From the NCBI GenBank assembly GCA_024137785.1, contig JAHRHZ010000021.1:20827129-20891128 (forward strand): a DNA stretch of 64,000 bases. Direction: 5' to 3'. Source of the DNA: Ginglymostoma cirratum. Lineage: Eukaryota. The notes beneath the pieces are model-generated. The model ran no database searches. It saw only the letters and a list, made by a program, of their open reading frames with translations, and was not told the origin of the DNA. Below, piece by piece: positions 1 through 63,998 of this stretch (its first letter is position 1; each line of letters begins with the position of its first letter). A program made the translations under genes and the position numbers.

Positions 1-26
1 CGTTTCGGGCCTAAACCCTTCATCAG
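1..26 (-). ncRNA. Minimal hammerhead ribozyme core (Penelope type), partial
   Basis: Minus strand reads CTGATGA-A-GGG-TTTAGG-CCC-GAAACG: CUGANGA box, stem II, GAAA box. Confidence 0.6.
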
Positions 27-99
27 GCCCGAAACGTCAAGTTTTCCTGCTCCTATGATGCTGCTTGACCTGCTGTGTTCATCCAGCCCCATGCTTGTT
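1..99. mobile_element. Penelope-type pLTR-derived fold-back insert, cut by the window edge
   Basis: 1-12 CGTTTCGGGCCT is complementary to 25-36 AGGCCCGAAACG. 25-99 is identical to 34354-34428. Confidence 0.8.
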
Positions 100-6549: not shown

Positions 6550-7060
6550 GTAGAGATCAGAGCAAGAATGGACCATTCAGCTCATCAAGCCTGCTCTGCT
6601 ATTCAGTAAGATTGTGGCTGACCTTCTACCTCAATTCCACCATCCCACACCATACCTACATTCCTCGGTATTTTTGGTCTACAGAAATTTTAGAACTCCT
6701 TTTGGAATATATTCAATAGATGAACATCTACAGCATTCTCTCAGGAGGAAAGTTCCACAGAACAAATCTTTCCCATCTGTCTGAAATGGCCACCCACTTT
6801 ATTGTTAAACTGTGACCATTGTAGTTCCAGACTCTCCAAACAGTAGAGACATCCTCCCTATCAAGCCCTTATGACCTTAAGAATTTTGTTTCACTAAATC
6901 ACCTCTTATCCTTCTAAATTCAAGGGAATATAAAACAGACTATTCAATGTCTCTTCAGGACAATCCGCTCATCCCAAGAATCAGTCTAGTGAACCTTTGT
7001 TGCTTTCAATACAAGGCTAATATATCTTTCCTTTGGTAAGGCAGTCAGAACTAACCATAG
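6550..7060 (-). mobile_element. Decayed CR1 LINE 3' fragment
   Basis: CCATTCAGCTCATCAAGCCTGCTCTGCTATTCAGTAAG...AATCAGTCTAGTGAACCTT, paralogous to 4770-5790. Confidence 0.7.
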
Positions 7061-7070
7061 CACTGGTGGT

Positions 7071-7192
7071 GAGACAACACAGTCTGGTGCTGGAGGAACA
7101 GAGCAGGCCAGGCAGCGTCAGAGGAGCAAGAAAGTTGATGTTTCAGGCCGGGGACTGTCTCTGACGCCAGCATGTGCAGTTCTTGCTGTCTC
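7071..7192 (-). mobile_element. Penelope-type pLTR-derived short insert
   Basis: GCAGGCCAGGCAGCGTCAGAGGAGCAAGAAAGTTGATGTTTCAGG matches the family at 34226, followed by an inverted CCAGCATGTGCAGTTC tail. Confidence 0.6.
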
Positions 7193-8099
7193 ATAGTACT
7201 GGTGTGTTCACTTCTGTGTTTGATTATGTTTGTTTGTTAATTGCTTATTACATGTGATTAGTTAAGTCTAGATGTGGTCACTTACAGAGACAGAGAGAGT
7301 GAACTGACGCTAGCTCCTGAAAACCTGGGAACAGACACTTTTTAAGCATTGAGAGTAAAGCTCTTTCAAACATATAAACTGGATTACATCATCTATGCAT
7401 ATCTCCGAGGCTTCAATCACAATAATATGGTCTTACTGAGCTTCTATATCATTTCAGTAAGTCTTTTCTCACTCTTGTATGGCAATGCCTTTTGTGTTAA
7501 AGGTTTAATAGGCCATTGTGAAGTAAGAAATGGGCAGAAGTCACGGTACCCATCAAAAAATGCTTTTTGACCTACAGGGGAATCGAGACTAATGGGGAGG
7601 CAGACAAAGTCAAGTTAAGACCATAATCAGATCAACCATGATCTTATTGAATACAGGCCCAAGGGGCTAAATGACTTACTGCGCCTATCATTAATTAATT
7701 AACCAAGGTTCAGCAGTGCTGAGTTTGACTGGGAATCACAATGGGTGGAGCATTGGTTAGCATGTAGGTCGATGCCTGCTTAAAAAAATACTAGCCACGT
7801 TCAACAAAGACACTCCTTTAAAACAAAAGTGTGAGCTTTAGGTCCCAGACTGAAGAATGCCGGGTGGTTCCAGTCACTGACTAGTCCATATTTCATGTTG
7901 TGGCAAGGGCTTTGGAGAGAGTTGTGGGGATGAGGGGTGGATTTAGCTGTGAAATCGAGATATTATAAGGGATGATAGTGATTTGCAGAATTGCTGAAGC
8001 ACCTAAAGAAGTAATCCTTTTGCTTCAGTTCCCAAAAAAAATGAAAGATTGTATTTCCATGTTATGAGTAGCTGCAAGGGGTAGGTGGAGTTAGTAGCA

Positions 8100-8860
8100 C
8101 CAGCATAGGACCCTGATTTGCAATTAAGGATAGCTTTCTACTTGCAGCTTATTAGCCAAATCCTGAATATTGTCTAGGTCTTGCTACATTTAGACATAGA
8201 TCACTATTGCAAAAGGTGCTCGATATGGTGCAGTCATCAGTGAGCACTTCTTAACCTCATGATTTGGATAGATACATGAATAGGAAAGGTTTGAAGGGAT
8301 ATGGGCCAGGAGAAGGCAGTTGGGACTAGTTTAGTTTGGGATTATATTTAGCATGGACTGGTTGGATAGAAGGGTTTATTTCCATGCTGTGTGACTCTGA
8401 CTATGACTCTATAAAGCAGCTGAAGATGGTTAGGCCGAGAACATGACTCTGAGGAATTCCTGCATAGATGTCCTGTGGTCAGATTGACTAATCGTCAGCC
8501 ACAACCACTATCTTTGTGCAAGTATGACTCTGTCCTCTTAATCCCATTGGCTCCAGTTTTGTTAGGGTTCCTTGATGCCACACTTCGACAAATCACCTTT
8601 GGTATTGAGGACAGCCGCACTTATATCACCTCTGAAGTTTAGCTGTTTTGTCTGTGTTTGAACCAAGCTGTAATGAGGTTATAGGCGGAGTGGCCCTGTC
8701 AGAACCCAAACTGTTGATGACCTTTTCCATCGCTTTACTGATGAAAAAAAAGACTAATGGGCTGGTAATTGTCCAGTTTGGTTTTTTATGTACAAGACAA
8801 TACGTGGGGAATTCTTCACATTGTCAAGATGCCAGTGCTGTAGCTAAATCCAGGCCATTT
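8100..8860 (-). mobile_element. Decayed LINE internal fragment, interrupted by a plus-strand CR1 tail at about 8262-8412
   Basis: The insert TTTGAAGGGATATGGGCCAGGAG...GACTATGACTCTAT is the reverse complement of the family at 21641-21808. Confidence 0.6.
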
Positions 8861-13640: not shown

Positions 13641-15104
13641 ACTTAGTTTGAAAAACACTCAAATTATATTGACTGAAAGTGTCCATTTAGGTTAAGTAAA
13701 CATGTGATGAGCCTCTAATGAATCCTGATAAGTAGCTGATTAATTATGATTGAATTTCCACATCAGTCAGGCAATAATTTGTAAAGTCAGGCCTAACTCT
13801 TAACATTCTGGAGAAAAATCTGTTCAAACTCAAATCGCACCTTTTTTTTGAAAAATACTACCATATAAATTTGTATTCCTTGGGAAATAGGGGAGGATAT
13901 AAATCAGGTTCTGTGCTAAGGCATTGAGTTTAAACTGTTCCGATCAAATAATTCAGCCTGAAAGCTCTGTGCTTCAGAGCAGCTGTCTAGATTCTCCATT
14001 AGAGAATATGAGTGTTTTTTGTAAACTACATGTGCTGATGTCAGTTGTCAATTTTCACCCCATAGATTAGTCGCCCCATAAACCTGTAATTATCTCACCC
14101 AGTTTAGAGAGCAGCTTTTTAGATAAGCCATAGTGCAGATCTCTGACTTTTAAAGTCACCAGTTTTAGAACTCCAGAATAAGTGGATCAGAACTTTCATT
14201 TTTATGTAAAGCTACTTGTGATGTTGATATAATTCAATACAATGGCTGCTGTGATGAGTGGTAGTACCTCTACTTCTTGTTGAAAAGGTTCGGGTTCAAA
14301 TCCCACCTTCCCCAGGAATGTGTCATGTCTGAACAGATTGATGAAAAATATCTGCAATTTGTTACATCTGTGTATCCACTCTGATCAGTGTTTGGCCGTT
14401 CAGATTTTTAAATTTAGTTTGTCTCAATCAGTGACGTTCAGCTAAGTTTCACTCTAGCTTTTAAAATTCTCTTACTTTCATGGGCTATGCTACCTTTTTA
14501 AAGGTACTAAAGTTCTTTAAGTTGCTATGTAGCAATAGCCCATGATAGATTAAAGTCTACTAAACTTATCCCCAGATCCTTTTGAAACCCTACATGTATT
14601 TTAACTTTCAACCTTGCATAATATTGTCCAACCAAGTGGTTTACAGCCAACCCCAGGATTCTGTTTGTTCTATTTTACAGATGGAAGAAAGTGGATCATT
14701 TCATATATTCCAGTTATTTTCGTAGCCTAAACTCCAGAGTGCATCTGAATCAATGTCTTTGCTGGAGCAAAAACTATTTTCAAAGAATTGGAAATGTGAG
14801 CACCCCTTTCTAAGTATGACACAGGAATGTTGTGTAACAATGATCTTCTGTTGCTGTGTGCTGAATTTTGTCCTTCAAGCATCAAGGATGATTTCTGGGT
14901 CATGAACCTGGCCAGTCGGTGCTGGGTGGTCAGTAGATACACCATGAGCATCTGTGCTTCTGAGTTGAATGGAACCAATGATGTTGCTCAAAATAGGGCT
15001 GGAGGGGATCCATAGTGCTGTAGGGAGCATTAGCCAATGTCTTAATTCTCTCCACCATCTAGTGGAGTTGGATTTTTGCAGCTGCCAAGCAAGCAATTGC
15101 AAGT

Positions 15105-21640: not shown

Positions 21641-21808
21641 ATAGAGTCCTAGAGTCACACAGCATGGAAACGGACCCTTCGGTCCAACCAGCCCATACCG
21701 AACAAAATGTCAAACTAAACTAGTCCCAGCTGCCTGCTCCTGGCCCATATCCCTTCAAACCTTTCCTATTCATGTACTTATCCAAATGTCTTTTAAACAT
21801 TGTAATTG
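21641..21808 (-). mobile_element. CR1 (HER1-like) 3' tail
   Basis: ATAGAGTCCTAGAGTCACACAGCATGGAAACGGACCCTTCGGTCCAAC. Confidence 0.8.
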
Positions 21809-32461: not shown

Positions 32462-34225
32462 ATTATGTGGGGAAACTAATTCATTACTTATCAGTGTTCT
32501 GACTGTCAGGTAAACTTACAGCAGATAAGTTATTTGACTTGGGTAAGGCAGTTGCTCCTGGGACTTCTGGCCTACCTGTGAAGTGAGTGCTAACTGTGCC
32601 TTCTGAACCGTTATACTGAGATTGCAATTTACTGGTTGCAGAACAGGATTCCACATCTATCTTTCTGTCCAGGCTCAGTTCTCAATCTCTGGACAAAGCC
32701 AATTGGAACCAGAGTGCTTGGGCATCATGAAGGAGTTAGAGGGTGATTAAATTTGCAGACAAACACCAATTAATTTACACATTAAAATCCAGAGACCATA
32801 TTTTGGAGAGGAAGTGGAAGGCGGGAGGTGTGGCAAGAGGACAGTTGACAATTCAGATGTGTCTTGGTGATTCTTGCACCACTTTGAAATGTTGAAACAA
32901 AAGCTTGGGAGCATTAATTTTTGAATTTCTCTAGATAAGCAAGCGTGTGACTGAATTCCACAGTGTTCTGAACATTTTCCTCTTGTAATGGCCATACTTC
33001 TTGGGTCCCTAGCAATGCATTAGGGTTAAGTGAACTTTGGTCTGTTCACAGCAGCTGTATTTTTCGCTGTTTTGTTTTAGCTTGGATCCAAACCATCTAA
33101 TGTAATACACACTTGAAGAGGAAGTGTCATGCCTCCGGCTAAGCTGGTAACCTTCCCACCAAGCCATGTGCTACATGATCTAACTGGCTACACTCTACTG
33201 GACAAAGCTATCCCTAGGGCAGGGACAGCTTTGATTTCACATATTTGACTGGAGCATATGTTTATAGTTTGCTTTAAGTCTAAACCTGATCGGGTAATGT
33301 TCAAAAATGCAAAGTCTTTAGTTGAATTTCACCCCAAGTGCTTGAAATTTAAAGGACAAAAATTGCAGAATCGTCTTGCTTTTGATCAGAACTTGATCTT
33401 ATCAGGCATTTTGCTGCACTTTGTGTTGATTGAGTATTTTCAGTATATACTGGACTAAGAATTTCCCTGGAACAAGGTTGTCATTCTACAAATGCTGTCT
33501 AATTCAGTGATTATTTTGTGATCATCAGGTGTCACAAAAATAGAGTACATACACCTAGCCAACTCTCTCCAAAATGAAAAACAACACCATAAATGAATGA
33601 AGCTATATGGTTTTAGGTGTCTTTCTTCACCCTAGTTTTGCTAGTGTTAAGTAGAGATCACTGGACCTTGCTGGTGTACTGCAGAGATCCAGTTCAGCTC
33701 CTTCTGATAGAAAGAGCAGTCTGACATTGGCATATCTTTGCAGACGTACAATCTCCTCAATCTGCAAGGCTGACAATGTCCATTTACAACTGGGTGCACC
33801 TGATAAAGGGAGAACTGCATGACTGTTATTGGCTGCACACTTGTAAAGTGAAAGCACCTTTTTAACAAAAAAAAAGCAAACCATCTAATTTCTTCCGGTT
33901 TCAGAGCTCGAGAAACTTCGATATTGAGTTTAGTACCTTGCAGTAAAATAATAGTGTAGAAATTTAGACAAAATAATCTGAGAGTAAGGGTTTATAAATA
34001 CAGCAATACATGTAATCCATCATTACTGATCCATCATGAAAAGCATTTTCCAGCCTTTCCTAAATATTCTTCATTCAGAGAAAGAATCCACTTAGCTAAT
34101 GATGGAGGCTATGGAATATTTGAACAGCCCTTGGCGTAAGTTGAGGGTGTTCAATGTGGAATTACCTTGCATGTTCAGATTTACCTCCACAGTGTGCGGA
34201 GTCCTTATTTAAATGAGCAGCTGAG

Positions 34226-34428
34226 ATAAAAGGTACTGCAGATGCTGGAGAATCCGAGATAACAAGCATGGGGCTGGATGAACACAGCAGGTCAAGCAGC
34301 ATCATAGGAGCAGGAAAACTTGATGTTTCGGGCCTAAACCTGATGAAGGGTTTAGGCCCGAAACGTCAAGTTTTCCTGCTCCTATGATGCTGCTTGACCT
34401 GCTGTGTTCATCCAGCCCCATGCTTGTT
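34226..34428. mobile_element. Penelope-type fold-back insert with 17-bp TSD
   Basis: Arms 34260-34340 and 34349-34429 are complementary with one mismatch. TTAAATGAGCAGCTGAG at 34209-34225 and 34427-34443. Confidence 0.88.
34340..34367 (+). ncRNA. Minimal hammerhead ribozyme core (Penelope type)
   Basis: CTGATGA-A-GGG-TTTAGG-CCC-GAA-ACGT-C: both catalytic boxes, stem II, palindromic ACGT stem III and a GUC triplet. No 5' stem I strand is evident. Confidence 0.65.
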
Positions 34429-34489
34429 AAATGAGCAGCTGAGTGTGTTTTGTACCACAAGGTCTGTTTCATTTTAGTGAGAAACTATT

Positions 34490-34880
34490 CCAGTGATATC
34501 TGTGCTGTTCAGTCATGTTCATCAGACGGACGATTGCTGTCTACCCAAAAATATTCAGGTCAGTGAACTGGCCATAGGGTCACAGCCTCCTGGGGGCCCA
34601 TACATCACTACGTGGACATCTGCATGCGTGATAGGAAGATGGTGGATATTGAGCCTGGCAACTGGGAGACGGTTGCAGTGACCTCTGAAGGCTGTCTATT
34701 TAGAAGAACACTAGAAGAAGTGAACAGAAATGAACAGCACAACTGGCCAAGCAGAGGGTTCAGAAAGGGAAAAAGAACAGGCCGGCAAATCGTGCACCTT
34801 CTCAAGCTACTGGTGACCTCCACCTCAAATATGGCAGAGGTTGCCTTGACAGAGTGGGTCTCCTGACCCACTGAAGCTAT
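34490..34880 (+). mobile_element. RTE-clade LINE 3' remnant
   Basis: SHVHQTDDCCLPKNIQVSELAIGSQPPGGP, then DIEPGNWETVA. Resembles RTE GHV.RM...RLPK..LYGEL..G.R..GRP. Confidence 0.7.
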
Positions 34881-37420: not shown

Positions 37421-37616
37421 AACAAATTACTGCAGATGCTAGAATCTGTACAGAAAACAAAAAAACGCTGGAGATCACAGCAGGTCAGGCAGCATCCATG
37501 GAGAGAAAGCAAGCTAATGTTTTGCATCTGGATGACTCTTCTAAACTCACATTAGGTTGCTTTCTCTCCATGGATGCTGCCTGACCCGCTGTAATCTCCA
37601 GCATTTTTTATTTTCA
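37421..37616. mobile_element. Older Penelope-type fold-back insert
   Basis: Arms about 37453-37520 and 37549-37615 are complementary. Starts with the CTGCAGATGCT family motif. Confidence 0.75.
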
Positions 37617-38289
37617 CCAGCAAATTCAAGCCCACCTCAGGTTTTGCTGGTCCACAGAGCTGTAGTTCTGCAAAATAAAAATCAAACCTGGCTCTCTGAC
37701 GTTAATTTAGAAATGTAGCCATTGCTTTTGGAAGATGGGTGAGAATAAAAACCTTGTTGATCTGCTCAGGTGGATTTAAAAGAACCCATCCCTTTGGTAG
37801 AAATGTTAGATGTTCTTCCAGTTTCAGAACCAAGATTTCTCCCTCAGCCAGCACTTTCTAAAATACATTTTATTTTGTTCCTGCACCTGTTGTGTATATT
37901 AGTTTAAACAAGGTAGAAATAAGACATAGGTACAAAAGAAAGCTGTACTGTCCACTAATGATTTTCTACTCATTCAGTGCTGGACTTCACACACTACAGT
38001 CGTCTGTTACCAGGATCTCTGAAATCTTGTTTGTCTATAGCCATACCCCTTTCCCACCAGTAGCTAAGCTCAATCCTAAACTCAAAGATTGACGTCTCAA
38101 TTCATCTATTTTTGCCATACATCTGGTTCTCTTTACGCCTTCTCACTCCACCCTTGCCAGAACTCCCTGGCCCATGGTTTCCTGGACCCAAGTGAATTGA
38201 CTTCAAAGCCTAATTTTCAAACCCCTCTAGGGTCTTGCTTCACCCTCCGTGACCAATCCTCTCCAGCTGCACATCTTGACTCTTCTTGC

Positions 38290-51236: not shown

Positions 51237-52634
51237 GCCATCTTAAGTGCATATGAGCTAGTACCAAAAGCCTACAAATAACATTTCAGGAAACTAAAGA
51301 GGGAACCTGGTCAAATGTACACTGAGTTTGAAAGGATCAAACAAAGTAATTTTGGTATGTGGATAAGGGTGCTGAAAATAGATCAAACGTACAGTATGAT
51401 GCTCTTAGGGAGACAATTATTTCGGAGAGTTCAAAGATTCACTTTGTGAAGTAGTGAGAACTCATGTGGAAGAGCAGAGAGTTAAGAATGCAAAATTAGC
51501 AGTGGGAATTGCAGATGATTGAGTTGGTTCATAAATCAAAGTTAGGCTTCTGGCATCAGTTTCAATCTGTGAGGGATAGGAATTGGGGGGTGGTGGGAAT
51601 AAATCCTCAGGCAGTAAGGGAAAAGGAAATATCAGTGAAGATAAAGAGAGTTTACCACTGGGTAAAAAGGAAGGAGAAGTCAAAAAGCTCGGGTGTTTTC
51701 ACTAATAAAGAGGGCCACATGAAGTTGCAGTGTTGGTGGTTTAGAAAAAGCCCTGAGAAGACAGATGTGGGAAAACAGGATAAGCCAGTGAGTTTTGTTG
51801 AAGTAGTAAAGGAAGGCTCAGTGGAAGCTAAAAAGCGGCAAAAGAAATCTACAGCCCAATCAGGGGTTGTTTGAGAAGAAAGGGCTAGATGTCTTTAAAG
51901 AATTTACTTGTGTGGTAAAATTTACTCATGCTTGCCAGGAAGAGCTGGTAAAGAAATTAGATTTTGAGATAGGGGAGCAAGTCAATCTTTGGTGAGAGAT
52001 GGGGAGATATGTAATTCAGAAGGAGTATTGTCAGAAGACATGGTAATATGTGGAATTCACGGTGAGAAGAGTGGTATTCCATTGTATAAGGTGAAGTTGG
52101 AGACCCCAGTGTAAAGTTGTAAATGGTGATAGGAGTAATAGAGAAATTCTTGGTATGAAAAATGTGCCTGCTACGTTTCAAAGACTAACCAATAAAAGTC
52201 TTTTCGGGATTACCCAATTGTATGGTGTATATCGATGATCTGGTAATTTTTAGTCACTCGTGGAAGGAACATTTGGAGCATCTGTCAGAATGGTTCAATT
52301 GAGGCAGGCTTGGTGATAAACCTGGCTGAGAGTGAGTTTGCTAAAGCCTAGGTCATATTCCTGGGCCATTTCATTGGACATGGACAGGTGGCTCCACAGG
52401 ATGTGAAAACAAAGGTTGTTGATGAAGAGGACAGTACTACAATTCCAGGAATTGGGTGGTTTTTATCAGAAGTTTGTACTGAATTTTAGCAGCCTGGTTG
52501 CTTCACTGATTGACTTACTGAAGAAGTGCAGAAAATTTCAGTAGACGGAGGAATATCAGAAGGCATTTAGCAGTCTGAACGCTGTGTTAACCACGGTTCC
52601 AGTGTTAGCTACACCCAATTACACAAAGCCATTC

Positions 52635-52759
52635 AAGAAGGGTCTAGGCCCGAAATGTCAAGCTTTCCTGCTCCTCTGATGCTGCTTGGCCTGCTGTGTT
52701 CATCCAGCTCCACACCTTGTTATCTCGGATTCTCCAGCATCTGCAGTACCTATTATCTC
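52635..52759 (+). mobile_element. Penelope-type pLTR insert nested at the start of Gypsy RNase H
   Basis: AAGAAGGGTCTAGGCCCGAAATGTC...CTGCAGTACCTATTATCTC lies between TKPFK and IDASDVG. Confidence 0.85.
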
Positions 52760-53282
52760 TATTGATGCAAGTGACGTGGGTGTACTGTTGCAAGAAGACA
52801 ATGAGAATATATAAAGACCTATAGGGTATTTTTCTTGAAAATTGAATAATCATCAGAAATATTCCATGATTGAGAAGGAGACCTTGAGATTGGTCTTGGC
52901 GATGCAATATTTCAACATTTATTTTGCCAGTAATGTGTCTGATACAATTGTATATTCTGATCATAACCCCTTAAAGATTTTGGAAATATTTAAGGATCAA
53001 AATACTAAATTGTTTAGATGGAGCTCTGATTGCAACCATTCAATTTGAAAATTGTATATGTGACACGACAAGAAAACGTAATTGCCAGCGCATTTTTGTG
53101 ACTTTGAAAGAAGACAGAGGCATTCAGTGGCAGGATACAGCAGATTGAAATGGACTGTAATATTGAATGCCTGCATGCTTAGGGTCAACGTAATGTATGT
53201 GTATTGCAGTGTACAAATAAAGGAAGACTTCATTTTTAAAAATGAAGCCATCTTTGTATATTGGGTTTTTTAAGGGGGTTGG

Positions 53283-56738: not shown

Positions 56739-57120
56739 AACATAGAAAATAGTAACAGGAGCAGGCCATTTGACGCTTCAAGCTTGCACTGCCATTCAAT
56801 ATAATTATGGCTTTTCATCCAAATCAGCATCCTGTACCACTTTCTGAAGAAGCGTCTAGGCCCGAAACGTCAGCCTTCCTGCTCCTCTGATGCTGCTTGG
56901 CCTGCTGTGTTCATCTAGCTCTACACCTTGTTATCTCAGATTCTCCAGCATCTGCAGTTCCTACTATCTCTGAAACCACTTTCTCCCCGTACCCTTTCAT
57001 CCCTTTAGCCCTAATGAGCTATATCTAACTCCCTGAAAACTTCAGTACTTTGGCATCAACTGCTTTCTGTGCCAAAAAAATCCAGTGGCCTACCTTTTTC
57101 TGGGTGAAGAAATTCTTATT
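56739..57120 (-). mobile_element. CR1 3' tail fragment (host of the insert at 56844)
   Basis: CATAGAAAATAGTAACAGGAGCAGGCCATT...TTTGGCATCAACTGCTTTCTGTG...GGGTGAAGAAATT. Confidence 0.75.
56844..56974 (+). mobile_element. Penelope-type pLTR insert with hammerhead core and 10-bp TSD
   Basis: CTGAAGAAGCGTCTAGGCCCGAAACGTC start. ACCACTTTCT at 56836-56845 and 56975-56984. Confidence 0.85.
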
Positions 57121-63065: not shown

Positions 63066-63835
63066 CATAAGAACGTAGAACATAGAACAGTACAGCACAG
63101 TACAGGCCCTTTGGCCCACGATGTTGTGCCGACCTATTATCCTACTCTAAGATCAGTCTGCCCTGCATACCTTACATTTTACTGTCCTCTGTGCCTATCC
63201 CACAGTCGCTTAAAAGCCTCTAAAGCATCTGACTGCACTACTACTGCCGGCAGCGCATTCCACATGCCCACCACTCTCTGTGTAAAGAACCCATCTCTGA
63301 CATCTCCCCTATACCTTCTTCCACTTACCTTTAAAATTATGCCCCCTCGTAATAGTCATGTCCACCCTGGGAAAAAGTCTCTGACTATCCACTCTATTTA
63401 TACCTCTTATCATCTTGTATACCTTTATCAAGTCACCTCTCATCCTTCTTCGCTCCAATGAAAAAGCCCTAGCTCCCTCAACCTTTCCTCATAAGACCTG
63501 CCCTCCTGTCTAGGCAGTCCTCTGCACCCTCTCGAAAGCTTCCACATCTTTCCCATAATGAGGTGACCAGAACTGAACACAATATTCAAAGTGTGGTCTA
63601 ACCAGGGTTTTAAAGAGCTGCAGCATAACTTCGTGGCTCTTAAACTCAATTCCCCTGCCACTGAAAGCCAACACACCAGACGCCTTTTTTACAACCCTGT
63701 CAACTTGGGTAGCAACTTTGAGGGATGTATGGACGTGGACCCCAAGATCCCTCTGTTCCTCCACACTGCTGAGAATCCTGCTATTAACCCTGTATTCTGC
63801 ATTCAAATTCGACCTTCCAGAATGAATCACTTCAC
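63066..63835 (-). mobile_element. Relatively well-preserved, 5'-truncated CR1 LINE
   Basis: 63510-63830 EQRDLGVHVH...LVRPHFEYCVQFWSPHY. Tail (CATAGAA)n-like repeats and CAGTACAGCACAGTACAGGCCC. Confidence 0.92.
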
Positions 63836-63903
63836 AAAGTAAGTAAGAAAGAATGTCATGATGCTGTAGGCCTTTTATAAATCCTTCTGGAATTTAGCCT
63901 TTT

Positions 63904-63998
63904 CTGAAGAAGGGTCTAGGCCCGAAACATCAGCTTTCCTGCTCCTCTGATGCTGCTTGGCCTGCTGTGTTCACCCAGCTCTACACCTTGTTATCTCT
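63904..63998 (+). mobile_element. Penelope-type pLTR insert starting at a hammerhead core
   Basis: CTGAAGAAGGGTCTAGGCCCGAAACATCAGCTTTCCTGCTCCTCTGATGCTGC. Confidence 0.85.

Follow-up and report, generated by a model that had tools for sequence, protein, structure and literature searches.

Structure of the insertion and its flanks

The 64-kb stretch of DNA analysed here (termed the window) carries, between positions 34209 and 34443, an insert of ~200 bases flanked by a duplicated target site (Table 1). The body of the insert is a hairpin whose two arms, each of 81 nt, are 99% complementary and are separated by a gap of 8 nt. The sole mismatch, T34324 opposite G34365, corresponds to a CpG-to-TpG change, and would form a G.U pair in RNA from the + strand and be unpaired in RNA from the - strand. 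The folded hairpin RNA reaches -182.2 kcal/mol (z -23.95), a stability equalled by none of 200 shuffled sequences. The flanking 17-nt direct repeat is perfect and scores 17 in a flank scan in which the top score among 300 random control intervals was 10. An earlier note on this DNA had described the arms, their single mismatch, the 8-nt loop and the 17-bp repeat, and all of its coordinates were confirmed. Its account of the extent of the insert holds for the hairpin and the repeat; it missed an extra segment of 34 nt on the left (34226-34259), which belongs to the same repeat family as the arms and renders the insert asymmetric.

Each arm thus holds private sequence, the left the 34-nt tail and the right CTGATGAAG. 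At the junction of the two arms there is a 1-nt microhomology at C34340. Both junctions with the target carry a 3-nt microhomology, in that the GAG ending the left repeat and the TTA starting the right repeat both match the element; the GAG overlap is likely to represent primer microhomology. Just to the right of the hairpin lies a 21-nt inverted pair (34501-34521 and 34721-34741, 86%, 199 nt apart), possibly an old small element or a chance occurrence.

Table 1. Features of the insertion at 34209-34443 and related copies elsewhere in the window.
Feature	Position	Strand	Remarks
Left copy of 17-bp target site duplication (TSD)	34209..34225	+	Last 3 nt (GAG) also match the distal 3' end of the element
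34-nt tail, left arm only	34226..34259	-	Spans the two 3' end points of the family, both TATCTC, ~33 nt apart
Left arm, 5'-truncated family copy	34260..34340	-	Begins at hammerhead stem II, without CTGATGA box
Minimal type I hammerhead motif, CTGATGA..GAAACGTC	34340..34367	+	In the right-hand copy; features according to PMC4209133
Hairpin loop, TGATGAAG	34341..34348	+	5' start of the right-hand sense copy, no spacer
Right arm, tail-less sense copy	34349..34429	+	Stops 4 nt before the proximal TATCTC end; last 3 nt (TTA) common to the target
Right copy of 17-bp TSD	34427..34443	+	Direct repeat of 34209..34225
Inverted copy, same young subfamily	1-99		Right arm (25-99) identical to right arm of the hairpin at 75/75 positions; cut by window start
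Head-to-head insertion	7056-7204		80-nt tail-less arm and tail-only arm of ~38 nt; 13-bp duplication with 1 mismatch
Older inverted insertion, related subfamily	37424-37631		83-nt arms, 83% complementary; 28-nt loop; tail on left arm
Solo family copy	52635-52760		Sits in a decayed, presumably gypsy-type RT/RNase H remnant (52200-52900); no TSD
Solo full unit with tail	56836-56984		10-bp duplication, its last bases overlapping the 5' start of the element

The hammerhead motif

The hammerhead core that the earlier note had placed across the loop and right arm was located in the right-hand copy. Its conserved C3-A9 segment (34340-34346) is followed by an extra A (34347), a stem II of 4 bp (34348-51 paired with 34356-59), the GAAA box (34360-63), a palindromic ACGT and a GUC site, with cleavage predicted after C34367. 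The CUGANGA and GAAA boxes, stem II, the palindromic positions 15.2-16.2 and the GUC triplet are all present and are kept across the family. As the note had expected, the core boxes are conserved: they are retained in the loose-end consensus lines of three sequencing runs, where the free position 7 alternates between T and A. A search with Rfam gave no hammerhead match at either the gathering or the e-value threshold.

A stem I of 4-5 bp closing the core is lacking at this locus. C34339 faces A34368, and the T-rich CATTT that supplies the 5' strand of stem I in the family has been displaced in this copy by the left arm. Within the hairpin the pairing probability of stem II is 0 and forcing it to form costs 30.7 kcal/mol, which bears out the proposal that the hairpin would sequester the core. 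The left arm has no CTGATGA box and has lost G16.2 through the CpG change at 34324. We predict from these features that the ribozyme at this locus is catalytically dead, and the hammerhead would be a passenger derived from the pseudo-LTR of the element.

Reads of the family likewise show no sign of cleavage. Family-wide read depth in polyA RNA from a related organism is flat across the cut site (9,985 at 34324 and 9,995 at 34321), and read ends do not pile up there. Because both arms of the insert reach 5' of the cut site, the template RNA appears to have been uncut at the ribozyme. Five of the 10 close-family arms begin within 3 nt of C3, a position that precedes the cut site by 27 nt (binomial p, calculated post hoc, from 3e-3 to 5e-5 depending on the range assumed, and with four arms of older subfamilies omitted from the count for their uncertain ends). 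Cleavage fails to explain this clustering of 5' ends, which might be caused by a structural stop to reverse transcription or by a defined short RNA. An extension of the former, which we hold only tentatively and consider rather unlikely, is that the hammerhead fold of the family acts as a reverse-transcription stop instead of a cutter: two target-primed cDNAs, one from each end of the tail, would stop on reaching the core at its 5' side, mass-producing the ~125-nt family unit and, where both cDNAs run long, perfect hairpins of 80-90 bp throughout the genome that would feed dsRNA pathways. If this were true, these stubs would document in nature how Penelope transposition carries out its second-strand step, which is still unsolved.

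A family of truncated copies in the window

BLAST searches seeded with four of the copies in the window identified 10 merged family segments in the 64 kb, or ~1 per 6 kb. Read in the sense of the ribozyme, the close copies share a unit of ~125 nt that starts near CTGANGA, and the family has a pair of 3' end points, spaced by ~33 nt and each closed by TATCTC. Among nine 3' ends examined, five include the tail (34223, 52760, 56971, 32387 and 7192) and four fall at the proximal point or no more than 5 nt from it (34429, 99, 63997 and 7070; the end at 63997 is 3 nt from the edge of the window). Four of the 10 segments are head-to-head inverted, with a different apex in each, and the other six are not inverted. 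The family's upstream stretch that is seen in sequencing reads (below) is absent from the window.

The copy cut off by the window start is closest to the hairpin. The identity of its right arm suggests, on comparison of the two sequences, a recently active source. Its apex is a mirror image of that at 34340, in that the left arm keeps the core and the right arm begins in stem II, and it has the same proximal end. A 12-bp palindrome is present just downstream of this copy, at 128-139, in a stretch loosely resembling the family tail. In the insertion at 7056-7204 the two arms scarcely overlap, and consequently no long hairpin is formed; its tail-only arm (7155-7192) is a short match whose score is equalled by 24 of 2000 random stretches of the window, some of which are themselves family copies. 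A different inverted pair of 137 nt (8262-8398 and 21651-21787, 88% complementary) has its members 13 kb apart and probably represents two copies of another repeat.

The TSDs recovered measure 17, 13 and 10 bp. The flank scan found no flanking duplication in five of nine copies scanned, no TSD was recovered around the older inverted insertion, and an 8-bp candidate duplication at the copy at 15095 is within the range of random controls. These data bear on whether the insert could be a DNA MITE with terminal inverted repeats. It is short and non-coding and combines long inverted repeats with a TSD, as a MITE would. However, its inverted repeat is not terminal, 34 nt being extra on one side, its relatives have TSDs of differing length or none that could be found, and solo single-arm copies exist. 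Throughout the family the 3' ends are fixed, the 5' ends are ragged and poly(A) is absent. Fixed 3' ends, ragged 5' ends and varying duplications are as expected of a target-primed retroelement. A MITE, which should have fixed ends and a constant short TSD, was therefore rejected as extremely improbable, in agreement with the earlier note, which had also preferred a retroposon.

Abundance and inverted junctions in related sequencing runs

Four coded sequencing runs were compared with positions 34050-34365, comprising the left flank, left arm and apex. Two sets of DNA contigs from organism A yielded 6,821 and 4,474 matching contigs, which cover the element almost exclusively and hardly touch the flank, and from this distribution we conclude that the family is very abundant. 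In polyA RNA run X22, from organism B, 44,814 of 12,895,792 reads (0.35%) matched, equally in both orientations, and run X23 gave 17 reads only; it should be borne in mind that X22 and the best DNA data come from different organisms. Read depth drops sharply at 34223, where 14,762 loose ends agree with each other at only 0.48, a low value that indicates many different flanks. A further 5,351 loose ends lying behind 34340 continue through the antisense core into another family segment, and a DNA contig from organism A has CATTT immediately before the core. Both observations show that family sequence continues upstream and that the apex of the hairpin is the junction of two truncated copies.

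Junctions in the reads show how often inversion has occurred. Among the 15 joints listed of a total of 97, 11 are head-to-head inversions in X22, one more is an inversion in a DNA contig, one on the opposite strand (34319-34361) is the colinear native unit, and two are one skip and one step back. In the listed X22 inversions the tail arm stops at 34254, 34255, 34260, 34266, 34272, 34282, 34291, 34317 and 34319, with three of the 11 joints next to the proximal site, at 34254-34255. Indels that distinguish subfamilies fall at 34266, 34317 and 34319, which makes the apexes at these three stops inexact. The step back, joint 34332 -> 34231 of X22, is made by 46 reads that return 102 nt on the same strand, and could reflect a head-to-tail tandem in organism B, whether retrozyme-like or partial. 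Inversion is common in the family and its position is variable. The idea that inversion occurs at the ribozyme as a rule is consequently not upheld, since the apexes differ among the four inverted window copies and among the read joints, though 5' ends are enriched near the core.

The same data were used to weigh a more novel possibility, namely that the hairpin is a distinct non-autonomous retroposon that moves as a unit, is inverted at the ribozyme and has its dsRNA processed by ADAR or Dicer. The clustering of arms near C3, the family's share of X22 polyA reads on both strands, and the small RNAs reported to arise from Penelopes of A. vaga would all fit such an element. Nevertheless, no apex is common to two inverted copies, even where arms are identical at 75/75 positions, most segments in the window are not inverted, and reads show the family continuing upstream of the core. 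Of the 45 variant places in the RNA, 22 are A>G or T>C changes, as are 10 of the 20 in DNA run X4; in this comparison across different organisms the shares are alike, and there is no excess that would point to editing. We consider a hairpin retroposon of this kind very unlikely.

Chimeric reads can produce near-perfect palindromes, and the exact junction at this locus was not found in an independent run, as might be expected if the hairpin were a fold-back artefact of assembly or library preparation. Such an artefact would not be accompanied by a 17-bp flanking duplication and a CpG-type mismatch, and it leaves unexplained the further inverted copies with their own TSD and the similar junctions that other samples show, both in contigs of DNA and in reads of RNA. 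On these grounds an artefact was rejected, and we give it almost no credence.

Searches for coding sequences and known RNA families

Pfam searches with 146 of the 160 stop-free window frames of at least 72 aa gave no match apart from a single chance hit below the cut-off (E 0.0089), and none was obtained with the 130 frames of 48-71 aa (of 336 in the window) whose start lies between 22,000 and 46,500; no host exon was detected in the window frames scanned, and the earlier note's suggestion of a host pre-mRNA whose hairpin could be an ADAR or Drosha/Dicer substrate found no support. Regular expressions built from reverse transcriptase (RT) and GIY-YIG motifs found no match in the window to a Penelope-like element (PLE). 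Their one convincing match was a gypsy-type RT motif at 52228, within the remnant at 52200-52900 that we take to be of gypsy type from its RT/RNase H motifs. Judged by translation, the solo copy in this remnant has apparently cost its target about two codons. A frame of 127 aa on the - strand (63510-63893) resembles what is presumably the C-terminal part of a CR1-type LINE RT; it had no Pfam match.

Word-index protein searches for a link to a PLE RT or GIY-YIG domain gave nothing relevant, and a full HMMER search recovered two repetitive unrelated proteins only. DNA pattern scans found no loci in viral contigs, four in metagenome contigs and one in prokaryote genomes, all of which were dismissed as chance matches of 22-30 nt lacking the rest of the element. 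Rfam gave no match to the window hairpin at the gathering score, and a known miRNA precursor was rejected, the generic hairpin matches being far below the cut-off (best 86.8 bits against 297). ARAGORN predicted no tRNA genes in the window, a search that decayed SINE heads often escape. A literature search with sequence words returned newt satellite 2 and unrelated papers only. The searched terms were absent from the portions consulted of the supplements to PMC4209133 and PMC11167929, whose figure-only alignments could contain the family.

A model for formation of the insert

The locus consists of the end of an abundant repeat, present as two 5'-truncated copies that meet head to head within a 17-bp duplication, and we consider it probable that it is a dead-on-arrival PLE insertion. 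The architecture of the insert and the type of its ribozyme are what point to a PLE, and in this respect the earlier note's proposal of a retroposon carrying a minimal hammerhead like those of PLEs has held up well, the motif being of type I. The nicking and priming steps set out below are our reconstruction. The GIY-YIG endonuclease of the element would nick the two target strands ~17 nt apart, and both nicked 3' ends would prime reverse transcription on the element RNA. The top strand would prime at the distal start site through GAG pairing, and would thereby copy the 34-nt tail, and the bottom strand would prime at the proximal site through TTA pairing to give the tail-less arm. Both cDNAs would pass the uncut ribozyme site, arrest in the ribozyme region after ~90-115 nt, and be joined at the 1-nt microhomology. 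The 81-bp stem would then be the stretch that was copied twice, either from two RNAs or by strand-displacement recopying of one RNA. The copy at 7056-7204 and the read joints at 34254-34255 would represent the non-overlapping end of the same range.

Two priming events are favoured over a simple fold-back because each arm holds sequence that is absent from the other. The 3-nt microhomology at both target junctions is likewise as expected if both nicked strands had paired with the RNA and primed.

The same PLE origin could have been achieved by self-priming, in which a cDNA folds back near the ribozyme and copies itself, with the apex later trimmed asymmetrically. Palindrome apexes are prone to deletion, which would make such trimming easier to accept. 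Moreover, the arms are identical except for one CpG change, both young copies have their apex inside the ribozyme motif, and self-priming is the explanation favoured for palindromic inverted junctions in PMC3846280. At this locus, however, it demands an extra deletion, as the loop is sense sequence missing from the left arm, and it cannot yield the copy at 7056-7204 or the 34254-34255 read joints, where the arms barely overlap. We therefore judge self-priming to be unlikely, and prefer twin priming. In a search of the open-access literature no report turned up in which PLE inversions are explained by twin priming, although this is weak evidence of absence.

The insertion is real and young, is likely to be an ordinary dead PLE stub of known architecture, and is probably inert; by itself it matters little. 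Its value is mechanistic. How PLEs generate inverted insertions has yet to be settled (PMC8557442; PMC3846280), and copies that are short, young, very numerous and bounded by TSDs preserve the two sites of priming along with the two points at which the cDNAs stopped. A genome-wide count of such copies could separate twin priming from self-priming without bench work. If many of the copies are intronic, the family would in addition supply long, perfect dsRNA in large amounts. The remaining interest lies in the many 5' ends at the start of the ribozyme core.

Comparison with known systems

Twin priming is familiar from the 5' inversions of L1 elements, in which both target strands prime and the products carry an inverted junction with microhomology and a TSD. 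In L1 inversions, which start from a poly(A) tail, the two parts scarcely overlap, whereas the present insert lacks poly(A) and had 81 nt copied twice.

Among ribozyme-bearing elements, the non-LTR retrozymes, reported in a chondrichthyan, share a non-coding nature, a type I hammerhead and derivation from PLE pLTRs, as described in bioRxiv 10.64898/2026.07.22.740005. Retrozymes are head-to-tail tandems with complete ribozymes, in contrast to the single head-to-head pair with one incomplete ribozyme seen here, and the insert was not assigned to this class. The insert shares more with the minimal type I hammerheads of metazoan PLE pLTRs (PMC4209133; reviewed in PMC6765202), which have the same core boxes, an extra nucleotide between A9 and G10.1, the G10.1-C11.1 pair, palindromic 15.2-16.2 positions without a stem III loop, and an occurrence as dispersed single motifs. 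In 2014, truncated PLEs had already been described as the source of thousands of dispersed minimal hammerheads, some of them paired on opposite strands at a distance of 100-700 bp (PMC4209133). Our example differs in that stem I no longer has its 5' strand and only one arm keeps the core, and its stem II is 4 bp compared with the 7-8 bp of Schistosoma hammerheads.

Poseidon of Anolis carolinensis (PAc) offers a biochemical parallel. According to PMC11167929, the PLE protein in vitro nicks and extends both target strands, starting at either of two sites between which the tail lies, and the template RNA of the anole element is likewise uncut, as no reads terminate at its ribozyme. PAc and the family described here would have in common a tail delimited by two RT start points, an uncut RNA template and extension of both target strands. 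The PAc open reading frame starts within the ribozyme. By contrast, the ATG in the core of our family opens 14 codons only and indels segregate in the arm, and for these two reasons the repeat end looks non-coding.

The earlier note had regarded the hairpin as an under-described system, a view that does not survive comparison with EN+ PLE insertions, for which an inverted truncated copy with a one-sided tail and a TSD is the published pattern. Insertions of PLEs that have a 5'-truncated copy in inverted orientation next to them, together with a tail of 30-40 bp at one end, are described in PMC8557442; inverted pLTRs with a 31-bp tail, palindromic junctions and 8-10-bp TSDs in PMC3846280, which explains the inverted junctions by self-priming and not by twin priming; and inverted pLTRs with 3' extensions are treated as routine PLE features in PMC8969392. 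The TSD at our locus, at 17 bp, is longer than the 8-10 bp of the A. vaga PLEs, and the inverted ends enclose neither an ORF nor a direct pLTR, which makes the insert the minimal form. It nonetheless shares with EN+ PLE insertions the head-to-head truncated copies, the palindrome at the junction, the one-sided tail (here of 34 nt), microhomology, the occurrence of solo ends, and a TSD that is variable or lacking.
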